Below are positions 2,237 to 41,104 of a stretch of 64,000 bases of DNA, one piece after another (position 1 is the stretch's first letter; each line of letters starts with the position of its first letter). Origin of the DNA: Candidatus Omnitrophota bacterium (GTDB lineage Bacteria > Omnitrophota > Gorgyraeia > Zapsychrales > Zapsychraceae); assembly GCA_020429915.1 (NCBI GenBank), contig JAGQKV010000004.1:68833-132832 (forward strand), written 5' to 3'. Made by a program: the position numbers and the translations under genes. A model generated the notes under the pieces. The model was not told where the DNA came from and made no database searches. It saw nothing but the letters and a program-made list of their open reading frames with translations.

Positions 2237-2274
2237 CAGATCAGCTTAGTTTGCAAGCAAACTAAGCTGATCTG
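2237..2274. repeat. 18-bp near-perfect inverted repeat (2-nt loop) carrying several GATC sites; it overlaps the stop codon of the giant ORF
   Basis: gatcagcttagtttgc / gcaaactaagctgatc is a perfect 16-bp inverted repeat, extended by 2 bp on each side. No U-tract follows it on the minus-strand transcript. Confidence 0.5.
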
Positions 2275-5200
2275 TCTGATCCGATAAAGACTTCGCGTTG
2301 CGGTCCAACGGATCCAGGGAATCGTAACTGATGCCATTTGATTCATCTTCAGCATTTTCAATCATCCCTAAAAGCATGGGAAGACTCGACACCGGGGTCA
2401 CATTGATGATCACCGGCACAAAGCCGTTAAGATTAAGCCGCTCGACGGCTCCGTTAAATTTCGGAAAGATCAGACTTCCATCTCCTTTGCGTTGCAGTTC
2501 AAAGAGATTGGGATCAAGGTCGATACCCCCAACCTCTTTGCCGGCCTCAACGATGACCGCTTCATCGGCAATAACACGCTCCACGGCCGCAATCACCTTA
2601 TTGACATCATCAGTTCCGTTTAACTCTCCCGAACGCAACAATGTCAGATAGCCCTGCAACCGCCGGTATATTTGATGGAAAACATCCGGCCCCTTTTCAC
2701 CGACGCCTTTGGTGGCGAGACCCAGCACAAATTGGACCGGATCAATCCGTGGATTACGGCGCAATACTTCTATATAAATATCCTCCAAAATATTCAGCTT
2801 CTGTGAGACAGGGAAGTCTTCACCAATTAATGCGCCGGTCAGACGACCCCACGCGAAAACGACATTTGGATTTTCCGGTTTCGGCTCCAACCCATTGGTC
2901 ATAGCTGCAGCCATAGACAACTTGACGAGCTGGGTATGGTCATCCTTCAACTGAACAAACTGCGGTTGCGCAAGAATACCGTTGATAATTTGGGTTTCGG
3001 TGGACAAAAACTCATCGGCCTGAGTATAACGTGCATTCAGGAAACCCGTCAGGGACTCCGCAAAAAAGACCAACTCATCCTCAAGGATCTCGAATCCGCT
3101 ATCGGTCTTAATCGCGATAACCCGGTTCAACCATGTCACCAATCGGCTACCGTAAAGTCGCGGGACCACCTTGCCAGGCTCAAAGATCAACATTCCTGGC
3201 CGCAACGCATTCATCCGACTTACGATGCCATCAGCAAAATCATCGAAATTGGCGCCCGCCTTCTGAGCCTCCTCTTTGAATGCTTCTCCCAATTCCCGGG
3301 CAAAGGCCAACTTTTTGGCCGGATTCTGGTTACCCTGAACCAGCCTGACGGCTGTCTCGGTCACTTCGCGAATTCCATCGGGCATAACCTTACCGTCCAG
3401 GCCAAAGCGCAGTTCTATACGTGTAGCGACAAGATCAATCAAATCATCCTCAACTTTTCGGACACGGAAGCCCAACATCTTCTTGTCAGCGATCGGCATA
3501 CCCATCCAGCTGATAGTCCCGTTATTGAACTCCACTTCGTCGGTATCGGACGCGAATGCCTTGATACCGTACTGAGACACAAAGAAGGCATTTACGGCCT
3601 CGACAAGAGCGGCCTTGGCCTGCTCCTTGTCTTTGCCCCACCGCTGGAGCCCCGCCTCAAATGCCTCGGCGAGCCTTGCCCTCACCATATCACGATCGCC
3701 TCCGTTAACGAGGCTTACAGCCTGACGGGCCCGGTCTTTGATACGGACAGCCATGAAACTGTCGACTTCCGCGGACATGGCCGCATCGGCCATAAAGTGC
3801 GCGGCCAATTCGGTCCCCGGCCGGAACTTGACGACCGGATAGGTGGCGCCACGGTCCAAACGGTACATGGCGGCTACCTGATCACGCGAGTAACGCCCTT
3901 CGCTTTCATGGGGACCCAAAATCCACAACCCCAGGGCATGTCCCGCCGCGAGGATAAAGAGCACATCGTCTTCGTCCAAATCGTATTCCGGCAGGCCAAC
4001 CAACACGCGATACGGAATCCCGATAGAATGGCGCCAAACACGGCCGCTGCGCAGGGCCGCCTCGAAGAGAATTTCCCCCACATTCTGAATCAGTTCGCGA
4101 TTGGCCTCCAGCGCGACGCGGTCGAACGAATACTTGACATCCAACGGCTCGAAGATTTCGACAATGGTATCCCCATCTTCCTCACCGACCGTTTCCAGCA
4201 GCGTGTAAATGACCTTGGTCGGCGACGGGACCGATTGACCCTCCGCCAGGACCGCAGCATCTTCATCAAATCCGATTTTACGCAGAGCGATACCCGCTTC
4301 GGCAACCGCGCGGGTAATCATCGCTACCGGCCTTTTCAGACTGGGAAGAACTTTGTCCGCTTTGTAGAAACGCATAACACTCGGATTCTTGTAAAGATCG
4401 GCCGACAGATACCCCTGGGCCAATCGACGCTCATTCAAGGTCACAAAGTCGAGACCGTGACTGATGTATTGCCCAAGGGCCAAATAATTGCCCGGCCAGG
4501 CTGTGTTGATCCCGAACGATGTTCCTTGCGGAACGCCGGCCTCTAACGCAATGGCGATGGCCTGCTCCACACTTTCCGGAATTTTTGCACTGTTAAATTG
4601 CACGGATATGTTATAGCCTTCGGATATCAATCCGGCCACGACTTCCATTTCCAACTTCAGCAAATTTCGCCACTGATCGTCCTTTACCAAGGCATCCACT
4701 CCGGCAAAACCGAGCGCCGGATTCACTTCGGCCTCATCCAGAAACTTTTCGTGTCCGCGCAGACGGACCAAGTCATGAGTATCGAGATCCAGCGTTTCGT
4801 ACACGAGTGACTTGGACTTATCCGTCCCGAAGGCCTCAAGAATGGCCTTCTTCAGAGCAGCCCTGAGTTCGCTACGCGATTGAGTCGTGGTGGTGACATA
4901 GGTTAACGGGTGTACTCCCCGAGCCTTGTAGAACTTCGAGGCACTGAAGGTGCTTTCGAACCCGATCGTAGGCGTACTGACCGCCTCTTCGGAAATAGCC
5001 AGGCTGCTGACCAATTCCGGGACATTGACACGGGTCTCCTTCTCACCGCGATACACGATTTGGCGGTTGAAGTCAATCGTTACCCGTTGTCCCTGCTCAA
5101 GCGTTTCGTCTATGGCGCGCACATTTCGGATAAGCGTCTGGATAACCGGAATGCCGAGTTGCCGCAATGCGTTGACCAAATCGGCCCGACCGACAAATCC

Positions 5201-8200
5201 CTCCACCTCGGGGACGATCACCGCACCCAGACGGCTGAACTTCTCTCGCAAAGATTCATCCACGATCGTATAGTCGGTCGGCTTTCCCTCTTCTTCCTTG
5301 ATCTCAATTTCGACATCGATCCCGTTCATCAAAGCCACATAGTCTCCCACATAAGTGGCGTCGAGATCCGCCGCGCTCTTGATCACATACAGGGGCCGAG
5401 TAGCGGCACCTCGATCAAGCGAGGACCGGAATCCTTGAACCAGGGCCTCCTGTTCGAGATCTTCGCCCTCGTCCGCGACGACCACGCCATGCTTGAGTGT
5501 GGCACTGGCCGAGCGAATGACGGCGGCCACCGTTCCCAGGTAGTCGGTCCCGGCGTATCCTCCGGTCTGCCCGAGGATCATCAGGATTGCCTCCGCCGCT
5601 TCGGGATTGATATTGACCAGATTGACCAATGCCTGGCCGCACAGACCGCACTTCGTTGATGCGTCCACGGCCGCGGCAGCCACGTGACGGATCGAATCGG
5701 TGACAAACGGATGGGCCTCGTTAAAGAGGTACGCCATCATCGGATTGTCGCGATCCGCACCCAATGTCAGCTGGGTGAGGTCATTTGTTCCGAACGACAA
5801 GAAACTTTTGCGCTTGAAGGCCACATCCTCGCCGAAACGCCCCTGGAACCAGGACAGTTGTTCGGCCTCATGTTTTTTCAGGACGGCAATAAATTCATCC
5901 GCCTGGATGACGTTGCTGGGCAATTCTGTCATCTGGCCGACTTCACGCAGGAAGACCGGCTTACCCAAGGATTCGCTCATCTGGCGTTCTTCTTCATTCA
6001 GAATTTCCGTGAGCCGGTTTAACTCATTCGGCGTGGAAACAAACGGGAAAAAGAATCCGATATTCCGGTATCCCTTAGCCACCTGACGCAACAGCATCTT
6101 GATTTCTTCACGAAGGATAATTTCATTCTCCGGTTGCAGCAACCAGCGCGCACCGCGTTCACCGATCATCGTGGAGACTTCGGGCTCCGGATCAAATACG
6201 CGCGAACCGATCAATTCGGCTGCTTCGTTCTTCTTGAAATCGATACTGCGGTAAAGAACTGCATTCACGTCCTGATTATTGGCAGCGGCCATTGTTGAAA
6301 TCGCACCGCCGTGCACAGCTTCGAAAAAGTCATTGTAGGACATATAACCGATCATCTGGCGGGTCGCCGCCGCGATGTCATCGGTGTGGCTGCGAATCAG
6401 ATCGACGTCCCGCCTTTCGAACCGGCCCAGACTCTTCAAGAATGCCTCGGAGCCTACCTCAGAAAAATTCTCGATCTTGGACTCCGTATCATCGGCCGCC
6501 ACGACCACGCCCTGCTCACGAAGTTTATTACGCGCACCGAAATGTTTCTCGAACCGGACGAGCGCCGTGCGCTCCTCATCGCTGAGTTCGTCTCGGTACG
6601 CCGGATTCTCCTGGGCACGCAAATAATCCAGAACAAGCAGGTTGTCATAGGCCCGTCCGAACCGCGGATTAACGTTTTCCTCCGCATAGGCGAACTCGCC
6701 GCGCATCAGGGCAACCCCCGAGAAACCGTTATATCTGGCAATCTTGGACATTTGCAGCATCGGATGCGGCATCCCCATGATGTAACCGATTTTCGTATAG
6801 ATCTCCGGCAGACGGTCCAGCTGGATTTCGATATTGCGTTCGCTGATCGGCAATTCACCGGCGTAAACCATTCCGTACCCAGTCTTTTCGTTGGCGTTAG
6901 CGTCTACCGTAACCACGTTTCCGGATGTATTGATGTAATCGATAATTCTACGGGCTTCTTCGGGGCCCAGCTCCCCTTCCAGCTTATTGACGAAGGTTTG
7001 GATCCCGACGACCGTTGCGATACCCAACTCGCGCGACATGACGGCCGCATGCGAAGTCGCCCCGCCGACGTCGGCAATAACCCCATAGACGTTCTTCGTC
7101 TGCAGGACCGCATTGTAATCCGGAGTCGTCTCGCGGGTCCGGATGATGATCTTTTTACCGCTGCCAGCCAAGGCCTTGATTTCCTCGAATTGGTCGGTGA
7201 GTTCTTTGGTTTCATCCACTCTGTAGATAACGCCCGTAAAGCTGTTACGGGTCGGAATTCCTTGGGCGACCAATTGACCTTTGCGCAACTCGGTGGCTTC
7301 CCCCTGATCATTGACGACCACTTCCTCTACACCCTTGGCTTCCTTCAGGTCTTTTTCTTTGACATAAGTGTAGCTGATGCGGATCAAATCCGGCTCCTTA
7401 ACGTCCGCCAAGACATTCGAAGAGCGGCGTTGAACCGTGATCGGCGTATTGGGACGCCCCAAATTGAGACCGATCCCGCCTTCCATATCAACCAGATGAC
7501 CGTATCCTTCGGCCTTCTTCATGTATTCCCGGGCTACGTCGATAACTTGACTGTCGGTCACCGAATAAATCTCACGCATAAACTCAGGGACGTCCGTGAA
7601 CATCGTTTTGATTTCCGGATCCTCGCTCTTTTCCTTAACAAGGTGAACCAACAGTTTGAGTTGGTCCTTGTCCAAATCGAAAAGATCGAGATCAGCATCG
7701 GTAATCTCAGCGGCGGTGGCATCTACTTTCAATTTGACAAGCCTTTGGATCGTCTCTTGAATGTCCTCAATAGACGCCCCGGCCTTGGCCTTAAATAAGG
7801 GGCCGGAAACCTCTTCCCCTTCCGCCAACCGCAGGTACGGCGCCAGATCCGATTCGGTCATCCCCAAGGCCCGGAAGGCCTCCACGGCATATATGGCCTG
7901 TACGGTCTTTGTACCCAACTGTTTACTGAGAATGTTGACCTGGGCTTCTTCCCCGTTTTCTCCGGGAACGATATGCACCAGGAAGGTATCCGGTGTTGTT
8001 ACCCCCTGGACTATGGACTCGCCCAGTCGCCACGTGAAGGTCATCGTCGCCACACGGCCCTTGTTCAAATATTCCGCCTCGGGCACATTTTGGAACGTAA
8101 AGCCGGTCCAATTGCTGCCGATGTCGTGACCCATAATAACAAAGGAAGTCACAACGTCCGCCATCGGCATGATCGTAACCCCCATCGCGATATTTTCCAC

Positions 8201-10807
8201 GTCAAAGTAAAAGGAGCGGCGGGCCTCAACAACATCGACCATCTCGACAAATCCGTTGCGGCGCAGGGCCTCTCTCAACTTGACGGAGGTAATAATGTTG
8301 AAATTCTTGTCCCGCAGGGCTTCCGCCACCAGCAGATCATCCCGGTTCTTCGAAGCACTCAGCTTCTCGATGATTTGGTCCGATTTCTTTGTTCGCGACA
8401 AAATGTCATCCATGGCGGTAATAACCATCAGCGTGTCGCGGTACTTCAGGACCTGTTCCGTATAAAGGGAGGAAACATCGTCACGCCAGCGGCGGACAAC
8501 ATCGGCTTCGCCGGCTTCCCCCAAATAACTGTCATGCTGTCCGGCATTGGATCCGACCACCACGTCCGTCAAGACCTTGAACACGATTGAGGCGTCTTCC
8601 GCCTTCCCGGAACTGCGGACCGCTACCAATTCCTGACCGGTGATCTCCACCTGTTTGCGGTAGGCCTCGGCGACGTCGCGGGCAATGTCTTCAGGGATAT
8701 CGTAACTCACAATAAGGGCGCGAATGTCGCGCTCCGCCTTGACCCGCCCTTGGTCGTTGGCCACATCCAGGTCATCCAGAATGGCATTAATCTGCGGGAT
8801 CAAATCGGCATGCGCCTTCAAGAATTTTGTTGAAGCCGTCGTCGTCCCCCCGAAGCTACGCAGATTCCCTTCCGGATCCTGAGACCAATACAGCCCTTGC
8901 TGGAATGTCTTTCCTCCGACCAGCTCCTTGCCGCGGATTTCATCAAGCACTGACGACTCGTAGTCCCAAACCACATTTTGCGTCAGTAACTTTTCATAAT
9001 AGTCATCCAAGAAGTTGTCCACGGACGCTTGGATAAGCTCAGTGAGTTGATCTCCCACCAGCTTTTGTTCCACTTCTTCGGCTTGGGCCTCGGCCTGCGC
9101 GAGCGCCGCGCCGACATCTTCAATTGATTCATCGGCCTTAATCTCAGCCGCTTTGTATAATCCGACCAACTCCCGAATCAGCAAATAATCCAGCATATTT
9201 TCTTGGTCCGAACCCATCAATTGGTTCACCAATCCCGCGCCGACAGAAATACTGTTTTCGCCCACATTGGAACTAGCGACCCGGTAGCTGGCGGCATTAC
9301 GCAACAAGATCACCGGTGATCCATTTTTAATGTCGTCGACAGCCAAAAAGGTAACCTCGTCTACCATATCGTAAAGTTTATCAGCGTCTACACCCGCCGC
9401 ATCCAGCACTTCAATCACGCGCGTTTTGCTTAACAAACTTTTGATATTGGGTACCGGATTGAATGTCGAAACTCTCCCTTTTTCAGCCGCACGGCTAATC
9501 CAGCGTTTGACATTAAAAAACAAACCTTCTGTCGCGTCGGTATCCCCCAGACGGATAACACCACGTTTTTTATCCAAATCTTCGGCAATCAATGCGGAAT
9601 CAGGACGCGCAAAATCGAAGGAGACATCGACTTCCCTGATGCCAGCCGTATCCAACAGACGCACCTGGGCCGGCGTCAGCCCCTCCTCCACAATTACCGC
9701 ATTATCGGTAAAATCTGCCCCGCCCGAGAAATAATGACGCGGGATACTGTCGCCGGTGACCGGATCGACGTCTTCCTTAATATAGTTGTAAACGCCTTTC
9801 TTGAAGGACTCGACATATTGCTCATAAATCTTCTGGTTGACCTGACGATCGGCTGTTTCAATCCCGGCCGTCTTGTTCTGCCCGACATAGGCCTTACCCA
9901 TCAAGCTTTCCTTCAGGTTTTCCTTATACCAATCGGCGAGGATCACCGCATGATACACCTGGCGCAGTTGGCTGAAGGTCCGGCCGTGATTGATTTCCCG
10001 TTCGATCTCGGGAATCAACACTTCCCGCACCACATCGGCAGCGGCACCGGTCACGACGTCCGCTTCGGCGACGGTCTGCCCGTGCTTATCAAACGCTTGG
10101 TGATTCTCCAGCGCCAAATAATCCTCTTCGAGCATCACTTTCAGCTTGCTTTCAATGATGACGGCCCGGTTGGCGTGTTCATAAATAACCGCCTTCTCAG
10201 GAACGATCCAGATTTTATTAAAGGTATTCATCGGCACTTCCGTGGTGCCGAAGCGCTCATAGGCGAGTTTATGCACCCGAGACCAAAACTCCTGTCCGGT
10301 CGTCCCTTCAGGGTACATCATCGATGAAGTCAATTGTTTGAGAAGATAATCCTGGGCCAGCAGGTCGCGGCCCATTTCAGTAACACCGAGGTGATTTCCG
10401 ACAATTCTATTTTCTTCATAGGGGGAGAGGTTGACCCACAACTCGTTCTCGGGAACGGTCAGCGCGGCCAGAAAGTACTTGATCATGCGGCTGGATTCGG
10501 TACGGAAGTCCGCTTCTGCCATAGCGGTTTCGCCCTGGTCCACCAAAAAGCTCATCTGCAGCGGATCATCCGGGTGGATGGTGATCCCTTTGATGATAGC
10601 CGGATCGAATTGGCCCGTGGGTTCAACGAGCGTCCCCGGAACGGGTAGGTCGAGCACCGACCCGGCAACCGTTTGTGCGGCGGCGGGCGGCACCACCGAG
10701 GTGGTTAGAAACACGGACAAGACAATAAAGCTTGTCATTTGGCAGATAAAACTTCGTTTAAAGGCAGCGATCTTCATACTCATTCCCCTCTGATGAATAG
10801 CATTCAC
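2246..10807 (-). CDS. giant multidomain protein (2853 aa) with N-terminal signal peptide/TM and an embedded pyruvate-phosphate-dikinase-like module (ATP-grasp, phospho-His swivel domain, PEP/pyruvate TIM barrel)
   Basis: A single uninterrupted 8.5-kb ORF. The N-terminus has a hydrophobic h-region ending AAAQ. Internal motifs: VAVRSSGKAEDAS (PEP/pyruvate-binding domain), GGATSHAAVMSRELGIATV (PEP-utilizer phospho-His domain) and FLSFGTNDLTQLTLGADRDN (PEP-utilizing enzyme signature 2). About 800 aa N-terminal and about 1000 aa C-terminal are unassigned. Confidence 0.75.
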   Translation of the reverse strand: MNAIHQRGMSMKIAAFKRSFICQMTSFIVLSVFLTTSVVPPAAAQTVAGSVLDLPVPGTLVEPTGQFDPAIIKGITIHPDDPLQMSFLVDQGETAMAEADFRTESSRMIKYFLAALTVPENELWVNLSPYEENRIVGNHLGVTEMGRDLLAQDYLLKQLTSSMMYPEGTTGQEFWSRVHKLAYERFGTTEVPMNTFNKIWIVPEKAVIYEHANRAVIIESKLKVMLEEDYLALENHQAFDKHGQTVAEADVVTGAAADVVREVLIPEIEREINHGRTFSQLRQVYHAVILADWYKENLKESLMGKAYVGQNKTAGIETADRQVNQKIYEQYVESFKKGVYNYIKEDVDPVTGDSIPRHYFSGGADFTDNAVIVEEGLTPAQVRLLDTAGIREVDVSFDFARPDSALIAEDLDKKRGVIRLGDTDATEGLFFNVKRWISRAAEKGRVSTFNPVPNIKSLLSKTRVIEVLDAAGVDADKLYDMVDEVTFLAVDDIKNGSPVILLRNAASYRVASSNVGENSISVGAGLVNQLMGSDQENMLDYLLIRELVGLYKAAEIKADESIEDVGAALAQAEAQAEEVEQKLVGDQLTELIQASVDNFLDDYYEKLLTQNVVWDYESSVLDEIRGKELVGGKTFQQGLYWSQDPEGNLRSFGGTTTASTKFLKAHADLIPQINAILDDLDVANDQGRVKAERDIRALIVSYDIPEDIARDVAEAYRKQVEITGQELVAVRSSGKAEDASIVFKVLTDVVVGSNAGQHDSYLGEAGEADVVRRWRDDVSSLYTEQVLKYRDTLMVITAMDDILSRTKKSDQIIEKLSASKNRDDLLVAEALRDKNFNIITSVKLREALRRNGFVEMVDVVEARRSFYFDVENIAMGVTIMPMADVVTSFVIMGHDIGSNWTGFTFQNVPEAEYLNKGRVATMTFTWRLGESIVQGVTTPDTFLVHIVPGENGEEAQVNILSKQLGTKTVQAIYAVEAFRALGMTESDLAPYLRLAEGEEVSGPLFKAKAGASIEDIQETIQRLVKLKVDATAAEITDADLDLFDLDKDQLKLLVHLVKEKSEDPEIKTMFTDVPEFMREIYSVTDSQVIDVAREYMKKAEGYGHLVDMEGGIGLNLGRPNTPITVQRRSSNVLADVKEPDLIRISYTYVKEKDLKEAKGVEEVVVNDQGEATELRKGQLVAQGIPTRNSFTGVIYRVDETKELTDQFEEIKALAGSGKKIIIRTRETTPDYNAVLQTKNVYGVIADVGGATSHAAVMSRELGIATVVGIQTFVNKLEGELGPEEARRIIDYINTSGNVVTVDANANEKTGYGMVYAGELPISERNIEIQLDRLPEIYTKIGYIMGMPHPMLQMSKIARYNGFSGVALMRGEFAYAEENVNPRFGRAYDNLLVLDYLRAQENPAYRDELSDEERTALVRFEKHFGARNKLREQGVVVAADDTESKIENFSEVGSEAFLKSLGRFERRDVDLIRSHTDDIAAATRQMIGYMSYNDFFEAVHGGAISTMAAANNQDVNAVLYRSIDFKKNEAAELIGSRVFDPEPEVSTMIGERGARWLLQPENEIILREEIKMLLRQVAKGYRNIGFFFPFVSTPNELNRLTEILNEEERQMSESLGKPVFLREVGQMTELPSNVIQADEFIAVLKKHEAEQLSWFQGRFGEDVAFKRKSFLSFGTNDLTQLTLGADRDNPMMAYLFNEAHPFVTDSIRHVAAAAVDASTKCGLCGQALVNLVNINPEAAEAILMILGQTGGYAGTDYLGTVAAVIRSASATLKHGVVVADEGEDLEQEALVQGFRSSLDRGAATRPLYVIKSAADLDATYVGDYVALMNGIDVEIEIKEEEGKPTDYTIVDESLREKFSRLGAVIVPEVEGFVGRADLVNALRQLGIPVIQTLIRNVRAIDETLEQGQRVTIDFNRQIVYRGEKETRVNVPELVSSLAISEEAVSTPTIGFESTFSASKFYKARGVHPLTYVTTTTQSRSELRAALKKAILEAFGTDKSKSLVYETLDLDTHDLVRLRGHEKFLDEAEVNPALGFAGVDALVKDDQWRNLLKLEMEVVAGLISEGYNISVQFNSAKIPESVEQAIAIALEAGVPQGTSFGINTAWPGNYLALGQYISHGLDFVTLNERRLAQGYLSADLYKNPSVMRFYKADKVLPSLKRPVAMITRAVAEAGIALRKIGFDEDAAVLAEGQSVPSPTKVIYTLLETVGEEDGDTIVEIFEPLDVKYSFDRVALEANRELIQNVGEILFEAALRSGRVWRHSIGIPYRVLVGLPEYDLDEDDVLFILAAGHALGLWILGPHESEGRYSRDQVAAMYRLDRGATYPVVKFRPGTELAAHFMADAAMSAEVDSFMAVRIKDRARQAVSLVNGGDRDMVRARLAEAFEAGLQRWGKDKEQAKAALVEAVNAFFVSQYGIKAFASDTDEVEFNNGTISWMGMPIADKKMLGFRVRKVEDDLIDLVATRIELRFGLDGKVMPDGIREVTETAVRLVQGNQNPAKKLAFARELGEAFKEEAQKAGANFDDFADGIVSRMNALRPGMLIFEPGKVVPRLYGSRLVTWLNRVIAIKTDSGFEILEDELVFFAESLTGFLNARYTQADEFLSTETQIINGILAQPQFVQLKDDHTQLVKLSMAAAMTNGLEPKPENPNVVFAWGRLTGALIGEDFPVSQKLNILEDIYIEVLRRNPRIDPVQFVLGLATKGVGEKGPDVFHQIYRRLQGYLTLLRSGELNGTDDVNKVIAAVERVIADEAVIVEAGKEVGGIDLDPNLFELQRKGDGSLIFPKFNGAVERLNLNGFVPVIINVTPVSSLPMLLGMIENAEDESNGISYDSLDPLDRNAKSLSDQTDQLSLLAN

Positions 10808-11023
10808 ACGTGTTGAATAATAAACACAAAAATTCCGTCGAAGACAGAATCTCCATGGATTTTCTGAGCTAACTAAAGTTGGTTATGTAAAACGGTGTGA
10901 TTGGGGAATGTTGCCAGACTTGAGTTATGTATAGTATACACTATAAGAAAGCGCTGTCAATAGACGTTTTTCGCTCCTGAGCGGGTTTTGGCGGGAATCC
11001 CCCAAACTTCCGGCGGGCATGAG

Positions 11024-11058
11024 AAAAAGGGGCAGAAAGTTATTTAACTTTCTGCCCC
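11024..11058 (-). terminator. rho-independent terminator downstream of groEL
   Basis: The minus-strand RNA is GGGGCAGAAAGUU-AAAUAA-CUUUCUGCCCC followed by UUUUU. It lies 38 nt after the groEL stop. Confidence 0.75.
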
Positions 11059-11095
11059 TCAATCATTTATGTATAACGGATCGGGTCCGGGTGAT

Positions 11096-17803: not shown

Positions 17804-18172
17804 TTATTTGGATTCGAGATAAGAGCTGACATAGTCCGCGATGCTTTCGGCATCGCGCTGGGCGATCTCGCTGAAGAAAATAGCGATGTTGTGATCATCG
17901 CTCGCAGCGATCTGCTCGGCCCGCACGACCACGCCCTGAGCCATGATCTGCTTGGTCACGTCCTTGCCGTTCTTGCGCAGCGGCAGCAGCAGGCAGACCT
18001 TCAGTTTGGTCATAGGCTCAATGTAGCGGTTGACTTTGCAATACAGACCGGAACGGCTGATATTGGCCGTTTCAGTGACCATATCACCGTTATTCTGAGA
18101 AATCCGTATGGGGATGTTGTTGCCTAAGCGGGGGTCTTTTCTGCGTTCGTGCGGTGGAGGTGATGTTACCAC
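17804..18172 (-). CDS. PilZ domain protein (c-di-GMP receptor)
   Basis: RRKDPR ... NISRSGL matches the PilZ motif RxxxR...(D/N)xSxxG. Single-domain, 122 aa. Confidence 0.75.
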   Translation of the reverse strand: MVTSPPPHERRKDPRLGNNIPIRISQNNGDMVTETANISRSGLYCKVNRYIEPMTKLKVCLLLPLRKNGKDVTKQIMAQGVVVRAEQIAASDDHNIAIFFSEIAQRDAESIADYVSSYLESK

Positions 18173-18446: not shown

Positions 18447-18788
18447 CTAAATGGCAGCGGCCACCATGCCGCGGATCTTTTTTTTCTCTTCTGGAATGAT
18501 TTCCGGATCGGCAAATGTGACGCCCGCCTGGTATTGATCGCTGTACGGGATTTGCGATACCCATACGATCCGGCCCCGGCAGTCTACATTTTGACCCGGT
18601 CTAAGTGCAATGTTAAGAACAACTTCAGTACCAAGAGGCAGGAATTCCGGAAGCCTCAGGCGCAGGCCGGACTCCGATATGTCGTAGGCCACGGTACCGG
18701 CGAAATGACCGGGGTCTAATAATTCGTAGCGCACCGGCTCTTTAAATGTTATCCTTTTAGCAAGGCGTCGTTCTTCGGCAGTCTTCAT
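18447..18788 (-). CDS. PilZ domain protein (c-di-GMP receptor)
   Basis: RRLAKR ... DISESGL matches the PilZ motif. 113 aa. Confidence 0.75.
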   Translation of the reverse strand: MKTAEERRLAKRITFKEPVRYELLDPGHFAGTVAYDISESGLRLRLPEFLPLGTEVVLNIALRPGQNVDCRGRIVWVSQIPYSDQYQAGVTFADPEIIPEEKKKIRGMVAAAI

Positions 18789-22119: not shown

Positions 22120-23004
22120 TTAAAGGACGAGTTGAATCCGCGACACAACGACCACGGGATGATCAAGCCCGGCAGCGGGGTCTTGCTTAAGGTGGCCTTC
22201 AATCTTGACGCGATAGTTGACGAACGGCTTCAACAGCTGGCTGAAACCGTCCAGATAGTAGGTTCCGTCACCGTTGTTGACCAGCGTGTATTCGAATCCG
22301 TTTTCCGCGGTGTTTTCTGTGAGGACGCCGGTGAAAGCGGTCTGCATCGTCGGAGTGGGTTCCGGTTCGGGTTCCGTGGACATCTCCAACTCTTCTGCCG
22401 GCGGCTTCGGGGGGACAGCCTTCTCTAACACGGCCAACTCTTTGGCGTCGAGCCAGCGGTCGGCCTGCACATCGGAAGAAACAAAATCGATAAAGTCTTC
22501 TCTGATCCAGCCGTACGTTTCCGGAATAGGACGGATGCGCAACCATTTTTCGTCGGAACCATCAACAACCAGGACGCGATCGCCTTCGTTGGCCTGTCCC
22601 AGGACCGAAAAATTAATACCGGCACCGCCGCGCACATTGACCCGGTCTGCGGTCACCTCCCCCACCTGCGCGCTGATCATACGCACATATTCGCGCGTTA
22701 GATAGCTCTTGGCGTCTTTGGGTAGGCGGACTTTGTACCAGCTGAAACTCTTCTCCTCGACAATAACGGCCTGGTCCATTTTGGCCTCGCCGAGACTCTC
22801 AAAGTTCCGGCTCTGGCCGGCGCGGATATTAACCGATTTGACGTTGATCTTCCCGGCGAAAGGAAAAAATTCCTGCTGGGCGCACGACGGGCCCGGAACC
22901 CCCAGCAGTGCCGTGGTCAACATTAGTGTGCAGATAAGGTGGATACGGTTACGCGCGGGGAAAGGCGGGCGATGCGGAATCTTACTTGCCCTTCTTCTCG
23001 TCAT
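22120..23004 (-). CDS. secreted protein with two bacterial SH3 (SH3b) domains; start uncertain
   Basis: Repeated VN(I/V)R.G.....LG....V.V motifs, a short signal peptide MLTTALLGVPGPSCA, and an Ala/Pro/Glu-rich linker. The ORF-track ORF is longer (to 23076), but its N-terminus is Arg/Pro-rich shadow. Confidence 0.6.
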   Translation of the reverse strand: MTRRRASKIPHRPPFPARNRIHLICTLMLTTALLGVPGPSCAQQEFFPFAGKINVKSVNIRAGQSRNFESLGEAKMDQAVIVEEKSFSWYKVRLPKDAKSYLTREYVRMISAQVGEVTADRVNVRGGAGINFSVLGQANEGDRVLVVDGSDEKWLRIRPIPETYGWIREDFIDFVSSDVQADRWLDAKELAVLEKAVPPKPPAEELEMSTEPEPEPTPTMQTAFTGVLTENTAENGFEYTLVNNGDGTYYLDGFSQLLKPFVNYRVKIEGHLKQDPAAGLDHPVVVVSRIQLVL

Positions 23005-23194
23005 CCTTGGCCTCGGCCTTTTTCTTGCGACCGGCTTTGACCTTGACGATTTTGGTCTTGGGAAGTCCGACCACACTCATGTCGTCGCTCCACTTCCCTT
23101 TCTTCATCAGGTCCTTGATCCGTTCGATGCGTGTCAGAACAGTGCGCTGTTGCGCTCCGGCAGAATCAACCTTTAACGATGGGTGTAATGACAT
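22982..23194 (-). CDS. small basic hypothetical protein (70 aa, Lys-rich C-terminus)
   Basis: ORF track. It has plausible codon usage and is packed between the SPOR and SH3 genes. No family recognised. Confidence 0.4.
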   Translation of the reverse strand: MSLHPSLKVDSAGAQQRTVLTRIERIKDLMKKGKWSDDMSVVGLPKTKIVKVKAGRKKKAEAKDDEKKGK

Positions 23195-27013: not shown

Positions 27014-28647
27014 CGCAAAATACTGGGTTTGTCGAATAATGTTACCAAGGCCTTGATTTCTTCCTCATTCCAAATCCAAAACCGCTCCTGCAGCGCCCTG
27101 AGCCGGGTGTGCTGGTCAAGCTCGGACAGGGATATCATCAGGCATTTTTCCGGTTTCCTTTCAAGCCTTTTGGCCTCGGCCACGATCGCGCTGACGTCCT
27201 GCTCCTTAAAGCCGTCCTCCTTGAGCACGATCAGCCATGTCGAATTGTCGGTATGGGCCTGAATGACGTCGATGAGCAGGCCGTGCTCATCGGCAACGGT
27301 CGCCGGGCTCAGATCACGGAAACTCGGCAGCCGGTATTTTCGGCCGTTCAGATCGAGCGATTCGTTGACAAGACAATTCAGCAGCTCCAGAATCCGGGAC
27401 GAGAAGGCCTTTTGGGACGTATCCTGAAAGTTTTCGACGTACAGCTGGAATTCCGCCCGGAACTGCTGCCGCTGTTTATCCGGGGTGAGCTCGATTTCAT
27501 TGAGGCGCCGCTGGAAAACAAATTTGATCCAATAACGAAACAATTTGTCTTTAAAGTAATGTAGCTTCCCGTTGCGGAAAATGATCCCTTCATCCTGCAG
27601 CCGGCGCAGCGACTTGGTCAACTGGGCCTTATTGATGTCTACCTCGTCGAGCAACTCCTCATTTCGCTGCAAACCGTTGGCCAAAGCTATCAAAACCGGG
27701 CCGGCTACCCGGTTACCTTTACCTAAACACAACTCGTTCATAATCAGTTCGAAGTGTCGGCTGATAACTCCCCAACGGTCGAACAATGTGTTCTCGACCG
27801 CCTTCGCGATCAGGGGAAGATAGATTTCTGATTGCTGGAATCTGGCGCGCAGATTCATCACCTCCCGGCAGACAAGCTGCAGATACAGCGGATATCCGCC
27901 GGTAAACTCCGTCAGAAAGTGGCAAAGTTGATTGCCGATTTTGTGCCCCTCCAGAAGATGTTCGATGAAATCCTGACTGTGACGGTGGTCAAAGGCATCC
28001 ATCTCGACCATTTCAAAGTTACCGAACAAGAGCGACAACTTTTCCGCGAGAATTTTCTGAGCCGAATACTTGTATGAACTGGAAAGGATATAGAGACAAT
28101 TCTTCTGAGTCATGATCTTGGAACTCAAGCTCGTGAAGACATCCGGCACCCCAAACTCGTCCAGCACCTGAAATTCATCGAAGATCAGGACGCAAAATTG
28201 TCCCGACTCGTAGGTATATATTTCGGGAACCGTCATCAGCCCGAAAAACGAGGAAGCCATCTTCCCCTTCCCTAAGTTCAGCTGGATATTCCGGATCACC
28301 TCGACCGTCTCCGGCAGATACGGCTTGGCCTCTTCCAGCAGCAGGTTGAGATCATCATGGACCGGCTGGCCTCTGTTCTTCAGAAAGTGATACAGCAGGC
28401 TGGCGCTGAACTTCTGGAAGAAATAGAAAATATCTTTGTTCTCAAGATCAAGATAGACCGGCGTCACCTTGCTGTCGTCAAGATTGTGCAGAAACTCCTG
28501 CAAGACGGCGGTCTTCCCCACGTGCCGGTATCCGATCAGGGCCACATTCTGGCGATACCCTTCCTTAAGCCCGCCGACCCGTTTTTTCAGCAGGTCAAGG
28601 ATCTCTCCCCGGCCGTGGAAATGATGTTCAAATTCGATTTCACTCAT
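27010..28647 (-). CDS. AAA+ ATPase of the archaeal-type ATPase family with a DUF234-like C-terminal domain
   Basis: Walker A GYRHVGKTA and Walker B VLIFDEF. 545 aa. It has 4-nt start/stop overlaps with both neighbours. Confidence 0.65.
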   Translation of the reverse strand: MSEIEFEHHFHGRGEILDLLKKRVGGLKEGYRQNVALIGYRHVGKTAVLQEFLHNLDDSKVTPVYLDLENKDIFYFFQKFSASLLYHFLKNRGQPVHDDLNLLLEEAKPYLPETVEVIRNIQLNLGKGKMASSFFGLMTVPEIYTYESGQFCVLIFDEFQVLDEFGVPDVFTSLSSKIMTQKNCLYILSSSYKYSAQKILAEKLSLLFGNFEMVEMDAFDHRHSQDFIEHLLEGHKIGNQLCHFLTEFTGGYPLYLQLVCREVMNLRARFQQSEIYLPLIAKAVENTLFDRWGVISRHFELIMNELCLGKGNRVAGPVLIALANGLQRNEELLDEVDINKAQLTKSLRRLQDEGIIFRNGKLHYFKDKLFRYWIKFVFQRRLNEIELTPDKQRQQFRAEFQLYVENFQDTSQKAFSSRILELLNCLVNESLDLNGRKYRLPSFRDLSPATVADEHGLLIDVIQAHTDNSTWLIVLKEDGFKEQDVSAIVAEAKRLERKPEKCLMISLSELDQHTRLRALQERFWIWNEEEIKALVTLFDKPSILR

Positions 28648-29324
28648 GGCAAATAGTAAAGCGGATTATCTCCCTTATCGTTCTTACGAATCTGAAAATG
28701 CAGGTATGCCAATCGGTCATGCTCACCCACCCGGGCGATAGGATCATGTTTGAATACATAATCTCCCAATTTGACCAGGACCTCGGCGTTTTTGGCATAC
28801 ACGGAATAAAAACCGTCCTGATGATCGATCACCACGGTATAGGCCTGGCCGGGGATGTAATCGGCAAGCACGACTTTCCCGGAACGTGCGGCCCGCACCA
28901 CCTCACCGCGCTGCGCCTTGATATCGATTCCCGGCGAGGCGATACCGTCTTTACGCTTCTGGTGAAAATAGTGGATGACCTGACCGCGCAACGGCCACAC
29001 AAAATCATCCTTCGTTTCTTCATCGTCGATGTATATCTCTTTGACGGCATCGGCCCCGGGAATGAATACCAGCTGGTTGACCTCGATCTCGGCAATGTTG
29101 GGAATATTATTCGATCGCACAATCTCGTCGATAGTTACATTGTAGGCCTTGGCAATCCGCCAAATAGTCTCTTTCTTGTTAACCTTGTGGTAGATGCCTT
29201 CCGGCTTGAGATTGGGCGGGGGTAAAACGAGCGTCGGCGGGGCCGGCTGGGTCGTCCGGCACCCGGACAAAGGGGCGACCATAACCAGAACGAGAATAAA
29301 AAACTTTCGGTTGGCCATCATCAT
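28644..29324 (-). CDS. NlpD-like lipoprotein with LysM and M23 peptidase domains
   Basis: Lipobox LSGC, LysM segment (YHKVNKKETIWRIAKAYNVTIDEI) and an M23 core (DHQDGFYSVY ... LHFQIR). The start was taken at MMMANRKFF. Confidence 0.8.
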   Translation of the reverse strand: MMMANRKFFILVLVMVAPLSGCRTTQPAPPTLVLPPPNLKPEGIYHKVNKKETIWRIAKAYNVTIDEIVRSNNIPNIAEIEVNQLVFIPGADAVKEIYIDDEETKDDFVWPLRGQVIHYFHQKRKDGIASPGIDIKAQRGEVVRAARSGKVVLADYIPGQAYTVVIDHQDGFYSVYAKNAEVLVKLGDYVFKHDPIARVGEHDRLAYLHFQIRKNDKGDNPLYYLP

Positions 29325-29977
29325 GCGTGTTCGACCTTCATCATCGGGTTGATGATACCTTTGAATTCCGTCACGGCCCGCGTCACGTCTTCGGCCCGGC
29401 AGATGGCCCGGCAAACAGCGAAATGGGTTACACCGACGGCCAAAAGCTTGTCGATATTTTCCGCGGTTATCCCTCCGATTGCGTACACGGGCACCGGGGT
29501 CTCCCTCACCACCTGTTCCAGCAGTGTCAAATCCATAGGTGAGCGATCGGGCTTGGTCAGGGTCTTGAACACTGATCCAAAACCGATATAATCAGCCCCC
29601 TCCGCCACGGCGCGCCGGACCTGCGCAATGGTCTGACAGGAAGCCCCAATGACATATTTGTCTCCCAGCAGGCGCCGGGCCTCCGGCAACGGAAGGTCTT
29701 CCTGACCGAGATGAACACCGGCGGCCCCAACGGCATGGCATATATCGGCCCGGTCGTTGACAATAAACGGTGTCCGCGGATTCATGCCGGCCAGTATCTC
29801 CCGGGATAGCCGCAGGACGTCTCGACCTTCTCCGCCTTTGTAACGCAGCTGCAGGGGCGCCGCCCCGGCACAGCCGGCCGTGCGGGCGATCCGCGGTAAC
29901 TCCGCCGGATCATTCACGGCAGCATCCAGGATCAGGTACAGATTAGATTCGGCTAATAACCTTTTTTTCAATGGCAT
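29321..29977 (-). CDS. thiE: thiamine-phosphate synthase
   Basis: TMP-TENI fold motifs LYLILD, VQLRYK and AIGGI. The ORF was trimmed to MPLKKRLL. Confidence 0.8.
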   Translation of the reverse strand: MPLKKRLLAESNLYLILDAAVNDPAELPRIARTAGCAGAAPLQLRYKGGEGRDVLRLSREILAGMNPRTPFIVNDRADICHAVGAAGVHLGQEDLPLPEARRLLGDKYVIGASCQTIAQVRRAVAEGADYIGFGSVFKTLTKPDRSPMDLTLLEQVVRETPVPVYAIGGITAENIDKLLAVGVTHFAVCRAICRAEDVTRAVTEFKGIINPMMKVEHA

Positions 29978-31414: not shown

Positions 31415-32440
31415 CTAGGCGGCAAACACCTTGGCGATTTCATAAATATCGGGTTCGATCGCCTTGTGCTTGCTTACCGCGTCCTTGATAGGAAAAGCGT
31501 TGAGTTTGTTCTTATGGATGGCCACCATGAATCCGTATTTATCCTGTTTGATCAATTCAATAGCATAAAATCCGAAACGGGTGCTGATGATCCTATCAAA
31601 GGATGTGGGGGCCCCGCCGCGTTGTATGTGACCCAAAACACTCACGCGCGTCTCGAAGCCGGTCTTGCTTTCGATCAGATCGGCAACCATTTCACCGACA
31701 CGGCTGACCCGGTGATTACGGATATTCTCTTCGTGTTCCTGTTGATTTGAATGCCCCTCAATCACGGCGCCTTCGGCAATAACTATGATACTGAATGTTT
31801 TACCGCGCTTATGCCGCGCGCGCAGCGAATCACAGACCAAATCGATATTTACCGGATATTCCGGCACGAGAATAATGTCGGCCCCGCCGGCGATACCGGC
31901 TTCGAGCGCGATCCATCCGGTATACCGGCCCATAACCTCGATAACGATGATCCGATGATGACTCTCGGCGGTGGTGTGCAACCGGTCGATGCACTGCGTG
32001 GCGATATTGACCGCCGTATCGAACCCGAAGGCATAATCCGTTCCGGTCAACGAATTATCCGCCGACTTAGGCACGCCGATGATCGGCAGATCAAACTTTT
32101 CGTACAACTCCAGAGCGATCTTAAGCGTGTCTTCTCCGCCGACCGCAATCAGCGCATCCATGCCGCTACGTTTAAAATTATCGGCGATCTGCTGATTCAT
32201 GCTGTCTTTTAACGGCGGGATAATGCGGCTTGTTCCGAGGATCGTACCGCCCCGGTCCAGAATGCCCGAGACGATTTGCAGGTCGAGTACCCGCATGTCA
32301 TTTTGCGCCAGGCCAGTCCAACCGTTCTTGATACCGGTAACCACATAACCTTCCGAAACAGCCTTGCGCACCACCGCCCGCAGTACTGAGTTCATACCCG
32401 GGCAGTCGGCGCCTCCTGTCAGCACTCCTATTTTCTTCAT
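31415..32440 (-). CDS. pfk: 6-phosphofructokinase with pyrophosphate-dependent signature residues
   Basis: The PFK-A fold starts MKKIGVLTGGADCPGMN. GGEDT replaces GGDGS (Asp at the Gly104 position) and PKS replaces PGT (Lys at the Gly124 position). Confidence 0.8.
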   Translation of the reverse strand: MKKIGVLTGGADCPGMNSVLRAVVRKAVSEGYVVTGIKNGWTGLAQNDMRVLDLQIVSGILDRGGTILGTSRIIPPLKDSMNQQIADNFKRSGMDALIAVGGEDTLKIALELYEKFDLPIIGVPKSADNSLTGTDYAFGFDTAVNIATQCIDRLHTTAESHHRIIVIEVMGRYTGWIALEAGIAGGADIILVPEYPVNIDLVCDSLRARHKRGKTFSIIVIAEGAVIEGHSNQQEHEENIRNHRVSRVGEMVADLIESKTGFETRVSVLGHIQRGGAPTSFDRIISTRFGFYAIELIKQDKYGFMVAIHKNKLNAFPIKDAVSKHKAIEPDIYEIAKVFAA

Positions 32441-40036: not shown

Positions 40037-41104
40037 TCAATAGTCAGCGGAACGCTTGAGCAGCTGTTCGAATTCCTGCAGATTCTTCACCTGCATGATG
40101 GCATCCTCATAGGTAATAATGCCTTGTTCGTAAAGGACCTTCAGGGACATGTCCATCGTATGCATGCCGTACTGCACACCGGTCTGTATAGCCGTCGGGA
40201 TTTGCTCCACGGCACGCTCCCGGATCAGATTCCGTACCGCCGGTGTGGCTACGAGGACCTCTGAAGCCATGACCCGGCCCTGCCCCGAAGCCCTGGGCAA
40301 CAGGGTCTGAGAAACGATGCCTTGCAAAGCCGCGGACAACTGCAGGCGGACCTGTTGTTGTTGATGCGCCGGGAATACGTCGATGACACGCTCAATGGTC
40401 TGGGCGGTATCGGGGGTGTGAAGAGTGGCCAGAACAAGGTGGCCTGTTTCCGCCGCCGTCAGGGCAGTTGAAATCGTCTCTAAATCCCGCATTTCCCCGA
40501 CGATAATAACATCCGGATCCTGACGCAGACAGCGTTTCAGGGCTTCCGAGAAGGAATTGGTGTCGCTGTAAATCTCGCGCTGTTTGATAACAGCCCGGTT
40601 ATTCCGGTGAACATACTCAATCGGGTCCTCGATACAGATGATCATGCACGAGCGCTCGGCATTGATGACGTTGACCATCGATGCCAAGGTGGTCGTCTTC
40701 CCGGACCCGGTGGGACCGGTAATAAGAACCAACCCGCTGGGCTTGCGCGCGAAATCCAGAATGGCTGGCGGCAACCCCAAATCATCAATGGTCGGGATAA
40801 AGCTCGGGATACGCCGTAGCGCGGCCTCGACCGACCCCTTCTGCATGTGTACATTAACCCGGAATCGCTCCAACCCCTCCATAGACAGCGAAAAATCCAA
40901 TTCGCGGTCCTGCTCAAACTTTTCTTTTTGAGTATCGGTGAGGATTCCGTAGATACACTTTTTCAATTCTTCACGAGTGAGCGTTGATCCGTCCGTCAAC
41001 ATAAGCTTTCCGTCGATGCGCAGAATTGGCGGGCTGTTCTCGGTAAGGTGGAGATCGGACGCCTTACGGTCAATACACAGTTTGAGAAGCTCTTTTAGAT
41101 CCAC
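40037..41104 (-). CDS. pilT: type IV pilus retraction ATPase PilT
   Basis: GPTGSGKTTT Walker A and the PilT motif AVRNLIRE; 355 aa. Confidence 0.85.
   Translation of the reverse strand: MDLKELLKLCIDRKASDLHLTENSPPILRIDGKLMLTDGSTLTREELKKCIYGILTDTQKEKFEQDRELDFSLSMEGLERFRVNVHMQKGSVEAALRRIPSFIPTIDDLGLPPAILDFARKPSGLVLITGPTGSGKTTTLASMVNVINAERSCMIICIEDPIEYVHRNNRAVIKQREIYSDTNSFSEALKRCLRQDPDVIIVGEMRDLETISTALTAAETGHLVLATLHTPDTAQTIERVIDVFPAHQQQQVRLQLSAALQGIVSQTLLPRASGQGRVMASEVLVATPAVRNLIRERAVEQIPTAIQTGVQYGMHTMDMSLKVLYEQGIITYEDAIMQVKNLQEFEQLLKRSADY

Follow-up and report, generated by a model that had tools for sequence, protein, structure and literature searches.

Giant proteins with enzyme domains have been described from the Omnitrophota. 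The preprint of West-Roberts et al. 2023 (10.1101/2023.11.21.568195) reports pyruvate-phosphate-dikinase and glycolytic domains in the predicted extracellular parts of giant Omnitrophota proteins. For proteins of at least 10 kAA, "multi-enzyme metabolic clusters" combined with a signal peptide and transmembrane topology were described in a 2026 preprint (10.64898/2026.06.07.730766). Seymour et al. 2023 (PMC10066038) took glycolysis in these bacteria as ordinary metabolism and called the giant open reading frames (ORFs) poorly understood. The general phenomenon of large exported enzyme-bearing Omnitrophota proteins is already known. Here, we describe a gene on the minus strand of a 64-kb stretch of Omnitrophota DNA (assembly GCA_020429915.1, contig JAGQKV010000004.1, positions 68,833 to 132,832; hereafter the window, with positions counted from its first nucleotide), which encodes a protein with a dikinase in its middle. 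A first-pass annotation of this DNA regarded such a dikinase within a giant exported protein as an architecture not described before, which is too strong in view of the related giants in the two preprints. Our preferred reading, to which we assign about an even chance, is that the product is a modular protein exported through Sec and that it belongs to a "bracketed cargo" family specific to the Omnitrophota.

Gene, leader and cysteine content

On the minus strand, the ORF 2246..10807 runs without interruption for 2,853 codons when counted from a GTG at 10807. It is not a product of chance, since a stop-free stretch of this length has a probability on the scale of (61/64)^2853, or about e^-137. 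Translation most likely begins at the ATG at 10777, which has a GAGGGG ribosome-binding site (10785-10790) 7 nt in front of it. The most likely coding sequence therefore covers 2246..10777 (minus strand) and comprises 2,843 codons and the stop. We number amino acids after the 2,853-codon ORF, and the leader therefore begins at aa 11. The product of the ATG at 10777 is 100% identical to P0001 (GenBank MCA9393282.1, annotated as [quoted passage not shown]); the sequence was thus already public under this label, and the gene is one among thousands of its kind. A 2,843-aa product identical to it was called on at least 24 independently assembled contigs (ENA and Logan; different samples and assemblers) and is present in three independent GenBank entries of metagenome-assembled genomes (MAGs). 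Because of this recurrence, we set aside a chimeric assembly as well as separate genes read through as one. The unusual length is the sole point in favor of such an artifact, whose probability we consider negligible, since the GC content is also even over the gene region and orthologs share the architecture from end to end. The question of a chimera had been raised in the first-pass annotation, and the single uninterrupted giant ORF reported there holds up as one real gene.

The protein starts with a Sec-type leader identified by rule-based features (aa 11-44; 10676..10777, minus strand), with predicted cleavage between A44 and Q45. The N-terminus reads MKIAAFKRS-FICQMTSFIVLSVFLTTSVV-PPAAA/QT (the slash marks the predicted cleavage site, here and below) and consists of the n-region MKIAAFKRS (charge +3), an h-region some 20 residues long, a PP pair that breaks the helix, and an AxA/Q site. 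A rule-based check found the features of a Sec signal peptide, namely a basic n-region, an h-region and small residues at -3 and -1. The same layout was observed in 180 complete members of the family described below, where an n-region with a mean net charge of +2.4 is followed by a hydrophobic core and then by P or PP. The commonest matches to a cleavage site in the family are AxA/Q (31), VxA/Q (30), SxA/Q (16) and GxA/Q (9), and alignment position A34 is at least 90% conserved in the leaders. A further strongly hydrophobic segment is absent in 156 of the 180 complete members. The window protein likewise has no internal transmembrane segment, its hydrophobic stretches being a buried ATP-grasp strand and a proline-rich module near the C-terminus. 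A Tat signal was also considered and was ruled out by the lack of a twin-arginine motif and the very hydrophobic core.

Cysteine is almost absent from the mature protein. Only two Cys are found in 2,809 residues, both in the catalytic motif KC1720GLC1723GQ, compared to 1.05% Cys in the 23 cytoplasmic proteins of the window (binomial p = 6e-11; this within-organism comparison covers 23 cytoplasmic and three exported proteins of one 64-kb window). Two small predicted exported proteins on the minus strand, an SH3 protein with an SCA/Q site (22120-23076) and a LysM-M23 lipoprotein with an LSGC lipobox (28644-29414), have no Cys at all in their mature parts, in line with the exclusion seen in the giant protein. 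Across the family, 152 Cys were counted in 366,677 mature residues (0.041%), and 106 of the 180 members have none. The remaining Cys are mostly catalytic (KCGLCGQ, and SCTTN of GAPDH), while 94 of the 180 members have a Cys within the leader. Stand-alone PpsA proteins have a median of 1.25% Cys. Exclusion of Cys is an established signature of exported proteins (Daniels et al. 2010, PMC2823432). As in that study, Cys is strongly depleted in mature exported proteins relative to cytoplasmic proteins of the same organism; unlike there, where Gram-positive bacteria were analyzed, we deal with a candidate phylum related to the Planctomycetes-Verrucomicrobia-Chlamydiae group and with otherwise cytoplasmic enzymes. 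Export is supported because the mature chains are nearly free of Cys and the residual Cys are mostly catalytic, and the near-total lack of Cys suggests that the family acts outside the cytoplasm. The signal peptide and the export predicted in the first-pass annotation thus agree with the Sec-type leader, and the Cys exclusion provides additional backing for export.

These features also bear on the possibility that the protein is a cytoplasmic, membrane-tethered enzyme scaffold whose N-terminal hydrophobic segment is an uncleaved anchor or no export signal at all. The scaffold would suit the cargo of the family, which consists of cytoplasm-type, nucleotide-dependent enzymes with intact motifs, including polypeptides that span most of the trunk from FBA to pyruvate, and it would suit the receiver and DnaJ domains in some paralogs. 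The housekeeping context and the strong promoter (see below) are consistent with it, published reconstructions take Omnitrophota glycolysis as ordinary metabolism, and West-Roberts et al. doubted their own extracellular prediction. However, positive charges are found N-terminal of the hydrophobic core but not behind it, so that an N-in/C-out orientation is predicted, the PP…[AVSG]xA/Q site is conserved, and there is no second transmembrane segment to return the chain. Moreover, the approximately 25-fold depletion of Cys is limited to the mature chain, whereas cytoplasmic neighbors and stand-alone PpsA are normal. The window also encodes a stand-alone phosphofructokinase of 341 aa (31415-32440, minus strand; PF00365, E 8e-105), which has no leader and 0.88% Cys. 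This leaderless enzyme of normal size indicates that the organism makes ordinary cytoplasmic glycolytic enzymes without the conserved ends described in the next section. We therefore consider a cytoplasmic scaffold unlikely. If the family were nevertheless cytoplasmic, the near-total purge of Cys and the conserved leader would need a new explanation.

Conserved ends around a variable middle

A search with the whole protein returned few full-length orthologs, followed by more than 100 Omnitrophota proteins of 1,600-5,000 aa that cover just 12-14% of the query at 50-60% identity. In pairwise alignments, the shared parts are aa ~14-370, which comprise the leader and an N-module, and aa 2757-2821, which lie in a C-module. 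The family-wide N-module (aa 45-375, about 330 aa; 9683..10675, minus strand) follows the pattern LDLPxPG … WVNLSPYE … GRDLLAQDYxLKQL … NTFNKIWIVP … PEIEREINxG..F..LRQ … RxYFSGG and belongs to no Pfam or NCBIfam family. The family-wide C-module (aa 2751-2821, about 70 aa, VGGIDLDPNLFELQRKGDG…NGFVPVIINVTPVSSLPMLLG; 2345..2557, minus strand) has no Pfam match; its consensus, GGIDLNP…GFxPVIINxTPxxxLPLLLG, corresponds to aa 2757-2821 of the window protein and ends 32 aa before the C-terminus. Among the 120 best matches, the N-module is located at residues 1-64 in all 120, and the C-module lies at most 93 aa from the end in 115. The identity of the C-module to those of paralogs is 34-62% (mean about 46%), at distances of 0-93 aa from the C-terminus. 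The C-module is present in 186 of 230 fetched family proteins, and the shorter length of the remaining ones is in line with genes truncated at contig ends. The window protein combines the leader and N-module, a C-module within about 100 aa of the end and a near absence of Cys, the traits by which we define membership in the bracketed cargo family.

The family is large. A phmmer search with the N-module against 1.84 billion cluster representatives (50% identity) yielded 7,984 matches at E<=1e-3, 6,178 of them at E<=1e-30, and the module is N-terminal in every match listed. When one genome per species was scanned, at least 573 N-module loci emerged. The best 80 of these at least 573 loci lie in MAGs labeled Omnitrophota/Omnitrophica or one of its genera, or with generic names or "uncultured Planctomycetales", and several of the 80 share a genome. 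The MAGs named "uncultured Planctomycetales" (L010-L012, L016-L019, L022, L032 and others) are probably automatically named Omnitrophota bins. The suggestion in the first-pass annotation of a fusion typical of giant-gene lineages is correct: the window is Omnitrophota DNA, and the N-module of the family matches 7,984 cluster representatives.

Between the conserved ends, the paralogs carry PGK, PGI, UGPase, PGM, enolase, TIM, GAPDH, FBA and PEPCK, as well as malate synthase/isocitrate lyase, glycogen synthase, phosphorylase, branching enzyme, PfkB kinases, GNATs, response-regulator receivers, DnaJ and LysM. In two proteins from other Omnitrophota, P0026 (4,729 aa) and P0044 (4,793 aa), the same N- and C-modules enclose enolase, a dikinase-like domain, GAPDH, TIM and PGK in one chain, with FBA in addition in P0044, so that a single polypeptide holds most of the glycolytic trunk. 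Catalytic motifs are present in P0026 (enolase SHRSGETED, GAPDH SCTTN) and P0044 (GAPDH SCTTN, enolase KxNQIGT), while the dikinase-like domain of both lacks the canonical His motif when searched by regular expression.

Pfam searches at E<=5 with the N-module, the linker that follows it, aa 1780-2760 and the C-module gave no matches. A profile search with the C-module led to no named family; its only matches were 41 short fragments (56-119 aa), most of which come from contigs no longer than a few kb. The C-module alone adopted no autonomous fold in an AlphaFold2 prediction (pTM 0.18), in keeping with a docking or sorting peptide that takes on order only when bound to a partner. The module is followed by an acidic C-terminal tail (aa 2822-2853; 2249..2344, minus strand), which ends with …DQLSLLAN (nt 2249-2272). 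No Pfam or NCBIfam match was found for the last 113 aa, including the sorting domains of the type IX secretion system (T9SS CTD), PEP-CTERM, LPXTG and GlyGly-CTERM, and the tail behind the hydrophobic stretch is acidic rather than basic, a layout unlike that of known C-terminal sorting domains. The tails of family members are 33 aa long in the median and carry an average net charge of -3.1, and 26 of the 180 members carry an [EDQ]x[LIVM]S[LYAV]L(N)-type motif at the extreme C-terminus under a strict pattern. A C-terminal transmembrane anchor was also considered, and is ruled out by three prolines in the segment and by the acidic tail.

A short motif, D-x-A-M-[LVTI]-[AST], is about ninefold enriched in the 230 family proteins (465 observed vs 51.6 ± 7.1 in shuffles). 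Its flanks are unconserved, its count grows with protein length, and it is often found in the linker right behind the N-module and 7-30 aa ahead of the C-module. The window protein has one exact copy of D-x-A-M at aa 2341-2344 (nt 3776-3787, minus strand), within the region aa 2191-2750, and degenerate copies at aa 397-400 (DFAR), 403-406 (DSAL) and 2748-2751 (DEAV). The motif may represent a processing or docking site between modules. Relics of internal starts with a ribosome-binding site were rejected as its origin: the codons spell no Shine-Dalgarno sequence and the flanks are unconserved.

N-modules within one MAG are slightly more alike (60.0%) than those from different MAGs (55.2%) despite differing cargo, although the sample is small and its loci (L004-L082) were chosen by similarity to the query. 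Mild concerted evolution could explain this likeness, as could co-adaptation of the modules to a partner that they share. The likeness would also be expected if the modules shared a genome-specific receptor, a point in favor of a prey-directed effector, which after Sec export would be delivered onto or into prey, for instance by machinery resembling the type II secretion system (T2SS) or Tad, and would drain or convert metabolites there with the ATP and NAD of the prey. The entire evidence for export, leader and Cys exclusion alike, applies equally to such an effector. Additionally, the layout of conserved termini with variable cargo between them is similar to that of substrates of dedicated secretion systems, Ca. 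Velamenicoccus archaeovorus lives as an epibiotic predator and empties the cells of its prey, and the problem of the cofactor supply would be solved. On the other hand, no secretion or injection genes are adjacent, no neighbor is conserved over 79 loci, and the cargo enzymes are of the housekeeping type and not toxin-like; the within-genome excess is small and comes from loci sampled by similarity. We judge an effector role to be quite unlikely, and the toxin suggested in the first-pass annotation, like the adhesin named next to it, received no specific support.

PEP-synthase-like dikinase and its degenerate copy

The cargo of the window protein is a dikinase related to phosphoenolpyruvate (PEP) synthase (aa 604-1789; 5441..8998, minus strand), assigned by matches in Pfam, NCBIfam and the PDB and by its motifs. 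Pfam detected PPDK_N (PF01326, aa 651-977, E 9e-28), PEP-utilizers (PF00391, aa 1220-1304, E 2e-14) and, in two stretches up to aa 1726, PEP-utilizers_C (PF02896, E 1e-37). The domain order is canonical, with an ATP-grasp domain (PPDK_N) interrupted by large insertions, a swivel domain and a PEP-binding TIM barrel, and this agrees with the first-pass annotation, which had listed the three modules in the right order and quoted three motifs that are all present. The motifs are VRSSGKAED at position 730, GGATSHAA at 1248, MTELPS at 1626, GTNDLTQ at 1673 and DRDN at 1685; the ATP-grasp motifs VRSSGKAED and AGQ are both found. The catalytic residues are His1253 in the swivel (GGATSH) and Cys1723 in the barrel (KCGLCGQ).

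The same annotation had called the enzyme similar to pyruvate phosphate dikinase (PPDK), but the scores point to PpsA instead. The NCBIfam models for PpsA gave 293.1 bits (NF005057, cut-off 598) and 271.5 bits (TIGR01418, cut-off 739.75), compared to 62.8 bits for the PPDK model (TIGR01828, cut-off 843). In the PDB, the best relatives are the PEP synthases 2OLS (E 1e-37) and 8A8E, whereas PPDK structures reached E 2e-7 to 2e-6. The scores remain under the equivalog cut-offs because insertions divide the PpsA match into six stretches; we therefore refer to the module as PpsA-like and not as an equivalog. The PpsA proteins covered by these models and structures share with it the three domains and their order, the GGxTSHAA His, the CGQ Cys and the NDLTQ/ExP/DRxN ligands. 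Unlike them, the window protein has a catalytic region of about 1,190 aa instead of about 800 owing to the large insertions, is fused to a dead second swivel/TIM copy, carries a signal peptide and N- and C-modules, and is almost devoid of Cys (0.17% compared to a median of 1.25%). The nearest stand-alone forms are ordinary PpsA proteins of other phyla with about 800 aa (about 160 bits, about 30% identity over the aligned stretches). A dikinase-only homolog search, in which the word prefilter let through only one ortholog, recovered no close stand-alone form with the same insertions.

The motifs RSS..ED, GGATSHAA, M.ELPS, GTNDLTQ, DRDN and GLCGQ are invariant in ten orthologs (P0002-P0011) that share 44-84% identity, and conservation of the catalytic residues, for which a check had been suggested, was found for His1253, Cys1723 and the ligand motifs alike. 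Because the catalytic elements are invariant at this level of divergence, the module is most likely a working enzyme of the pyruvate,water dikinase type, neither a PPDK nor a fossil. Some points favor a non-catalytic fossil, which a surface protein or adhesin would employ for ligand binding or as a structural domain. The same protein holds a dead swivel/TIM copy, the distant paralogs P0012, P0018, P0026 and P0044 lack the canonical dikinase motifs in regular-expression searches, and the PpsA scores are below the equivalog cut-offs. Yet it would leave unexplained why every catalytic motif is kept among the orthologs, and why the sole two Cys in 2,809 mature residues lie in a catalytic motif. 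We regard it as very unlikely.

Behind the dikinase follows a degenerate second copy of the swivel and the PEP-binding TIM barrel (aa 1790-2190; 4238..5440, minus strand), which was identified by comparing an 11-ortholog profile to the PDB. The profile of aa 1790-2200 matched 8A8E (E 3.8e-20) and residues 396-694 of the 2OLS chain (E 5.3e-12). Plain BLAST of aa 1780-2280 against the dikinase gave weak, collinear, non-significant matches, and the duplication became clear only from the ortholog profile. The second copy cannot be catalytic, because VEGFVGRADLV stands in place of the His motif and NERRLAQ in place of NDLTQ. All orthologs keep aa 604-2190 as a single block, in which dikinase and second copy stand together, and the second-copy region recurs behind the dikinase-like domain of P0026 and P0044. 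PEP-utilizing enzymes dimerize via the TIM-barrel domain. We infer that the dead copy may supply the dimer interface within one chain and is a probable pseudo-enzyme partner. The fused dead copy would then be a clear example of an enzyme with its own pseudo-dimer partner.

Two further stretches are specific to the lineage. The linker between N-module and dikinase (aa 376-603; 8999..9682, minus strand) is conserved only in close orthologs and a few paralogs and has no Pfam match, as is also the case for the region in front of the C-module (aa 2191-2750; 2558..4237, minus strand). BLAST with aa 2191-2750 found relatives in P0001 and P0002 only; in a wider BLAST, the matches of P0003 and P0004 extend to query positions 2303-2346. 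P0007 and P0010 lack aa 2190-2750 and pass directly into the C-module, and the ortholog P0003 (3,431 aa) has an insertion of about 1,000 aa between the N-module and the remainder. Judged by these alignments, the family evolves by insertion and deletion of modules between fixed ends. The view in the first-pass annotation that the dikinase is flanked by sequence of no recognizable family does not hold for the flanks as a whole, which contain the family-wide N- and C-modules and the pseudo-enzyme duplicate. About 600 aa precede the dikinase, not the 800 given there, and of the roughly 1,000 aa thought unrecognizable behind it, the first 400 or so form the degenerate swivel/TIM copy and the end is the C-module.

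Genomic setting, proposed function and relation to known systems

The giant gene lies downstream of groES-groEL and upstream of a guaB-like gene, guaA, dnaE, hup, hisS and aspS, with ribosomal protein operons, secY, tuf, fusA and rpoC farther along the window. A sigma-70-type promoter (TTGACA-16 nt-TATACT; 10933..10960, minus strand) with 11 of 12 consensus matches is located downstream of the terminator hairpin of groEL (11027-11060); the assignment is a consensus match, and the regional number of such sites does not exceed the shuffled expectation. A PilT/GspE-type secretion ATPase is encoded about 30 kb from the giant gene (40037-41104, minus strand; PF00437, E 9e-47), and no other parts of a secretion system were recognized among the window ORFs of at least 250 aa that were scanned. 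Rfam and tRNA scans of the window gave no matches, and a tblastn search for further N- or C-modules in the window found the giant gene only. Among the 79 family loci compared, the largest cluster of upstream flanks (11 of 79) contains a long ORF similar to the carboxyltransferase of acetyl-CoA carboxylase (e.g., L017 1-3000), directly before another family member. Tandem arrangement of family genes is thereby suggested, the carboxyltransferase-like ORF being possibly a family member as well.

Two small PilZ-domain genes were observed about 7 kb upstream of the giant gene (17804-18172 and 18447-18788). They do not adjoin it, unlike the PilZ genes that West-Roberts et al. (10.1101/2023.11.21.568195) report beside giant Omnitrophota genes.

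If the protein is exported as we propose, the long hydrophobic signal peptide would direct the nascent chain to the Sec translocon and would be cut off at AAA/Q. Translocation would probably be co-translational, because the leader is hydrophobic and the chain large. The mature, nearly Cys-free chain would emerge with the approximately 330-aa N-module first and the approximately 70-aa C-module and acidic tail last. Both modules would serve as common handling parts by which the protein is recognized, anchored or assembled in the envelope or the surface coat of the cell, and the middle of the protein would be exchangeable cargo. In the window protein, this cargo would be a catalytically competent dikinase of the PEP-synthase type, interconverting pyruvate + ATP and PEP + AMP + inorganic phosphate (Pi). 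Its dimerization partner would be replaced by the fused dead swivel and TIM-barrel half, so that the tethered monomer keeps a barrel-barrel interface. The nucleotides might come from the periplasm, the surface coat or a predator-prey interface.

Earlier topology predictions for larger relatives agree with export. Several observations weigh against it. A PEP synthase needs ATP, or AMP and Pi when it runs in reverse, which are unexpected outside the cytoplasm, the enzymes of paralogs require NAD and ADP, and paralogs hold stretches of ATP- and NAD-dependent glycolysis with intact catalytic motifs (for example, enolase and GAPDH of P0026), while others hold response-regulator receivers and DnaJ domains, which are normally cytoplasmic. 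The h-region, with its approximately 20 residues, is long enough for an uncleaved anchor. The setting is one of housekeeping genes (groESL, guaB-like, guaA, dnaE) with no secretion system adjoining the giant gene, and a conserved upstream partner gene was sought over the 79 family loci and not found. Likewise, a search for structural or named relatives of the N- and C-modules found none, and the roles proposed for them are derived from their position, their conservation and the absence of catalytic-looking invariant residues.

A broader proposal, which we regard as somewhat doubtful, is that the Omnitrophota export much of their central carbon metabolism via the bracket system, including the glycolysis/gluconeogenesis trunk, enzymes of glycogen and nucleotide-sugar metabolism and the PEP synthase described here. 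Nucleotide-dependent metabolism would then take place outside the cytoplasm, in the periplasm, the surface coat or at the predator-prey junction, and the D-x-A-M motifs would be processing or docking sites.

Catalytically intact enzymes of the cytoplasmic type that appear to be built, across an entire family, for life outside the cytoplasm are surprising. If export holds true, textbook-cytoplasmic enzymes that need ATP, AMP/Pi or NAD act outside the cytoplasm in a phylum of ultra-small, possibly predatory bacteria. This would raise the question of the cofactor source and offer a concrete route to study how these cells feed on others. Under the broader proposal, published metabolic reconstructions would partly count exported enzymes as cytoplasmic pathways, and calls of "glycolysis present" based on KEGG Orthology may rest on exported fusion proteins. 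Further, the two conserved, unannotated modules are now defined as targets for structure determination and may belong to a new sorting or assembly pathway.

A Sec leader and a conserved C-terminal signal around variable cargo are known from other bacteria, for example from proteins with the CTD of type IX secretion. By analogy, substrates of the T9SS CTD type resemble the bracketed cargo family in their Sec leader, their diverse cargo and a conserved C-terminal element that occurs in many paralogs per genome. Unlike in these substrates, the C-module has no match to known sorting domains in Pfam or NCBIfam and does not fold alone, whereas the CTD is a beta-sandwich. The 330-aa N-module has no counterpart among them, and phylum and type of cargo differ.

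Also close among described systems are the Archaeovorins and "multi-enzyme metabolic cluster" giants of the Omnitrophota. The accessible texts of the giant-protein preprints contain no description of the N/C bracket or of the Cys exclusion, and in the accessible literature we found none of a mid-size (1.6-5 kAA), leader-only family or of the pseudo-duplicate. The known giants have 10,000-147,000 aa, many transmembrane helices, HEAT/TPR arrays and adjacent T2SS-like loci, whereas the window protein, at 2,843 aa, has no more than a leader and a single enzyme unit and is encoded among housekeeping genes. It has no internal transmembrane segment, dikinase domains are the only ones that Pfam finds in it, so that HEAT, GT and TPR domains are missing, and its gene is not accompanied by an upstream locus resembling the T2SS or type IV pili and a PilZ gene downstream. 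Because size, transmembrane segments and neighborhood all differ, we do not class it as an Archaeovorin. What connects it to these giants is the phylum, the signal peptide, the presence of PPDK-type domains and cytoplasm-type domains of sugar metabolism for which a location outside the cytoplasm is predicted, and, for its family, a similar cargo of PGM, PGI, TIM, FBA, starch synthase and receiver domains.

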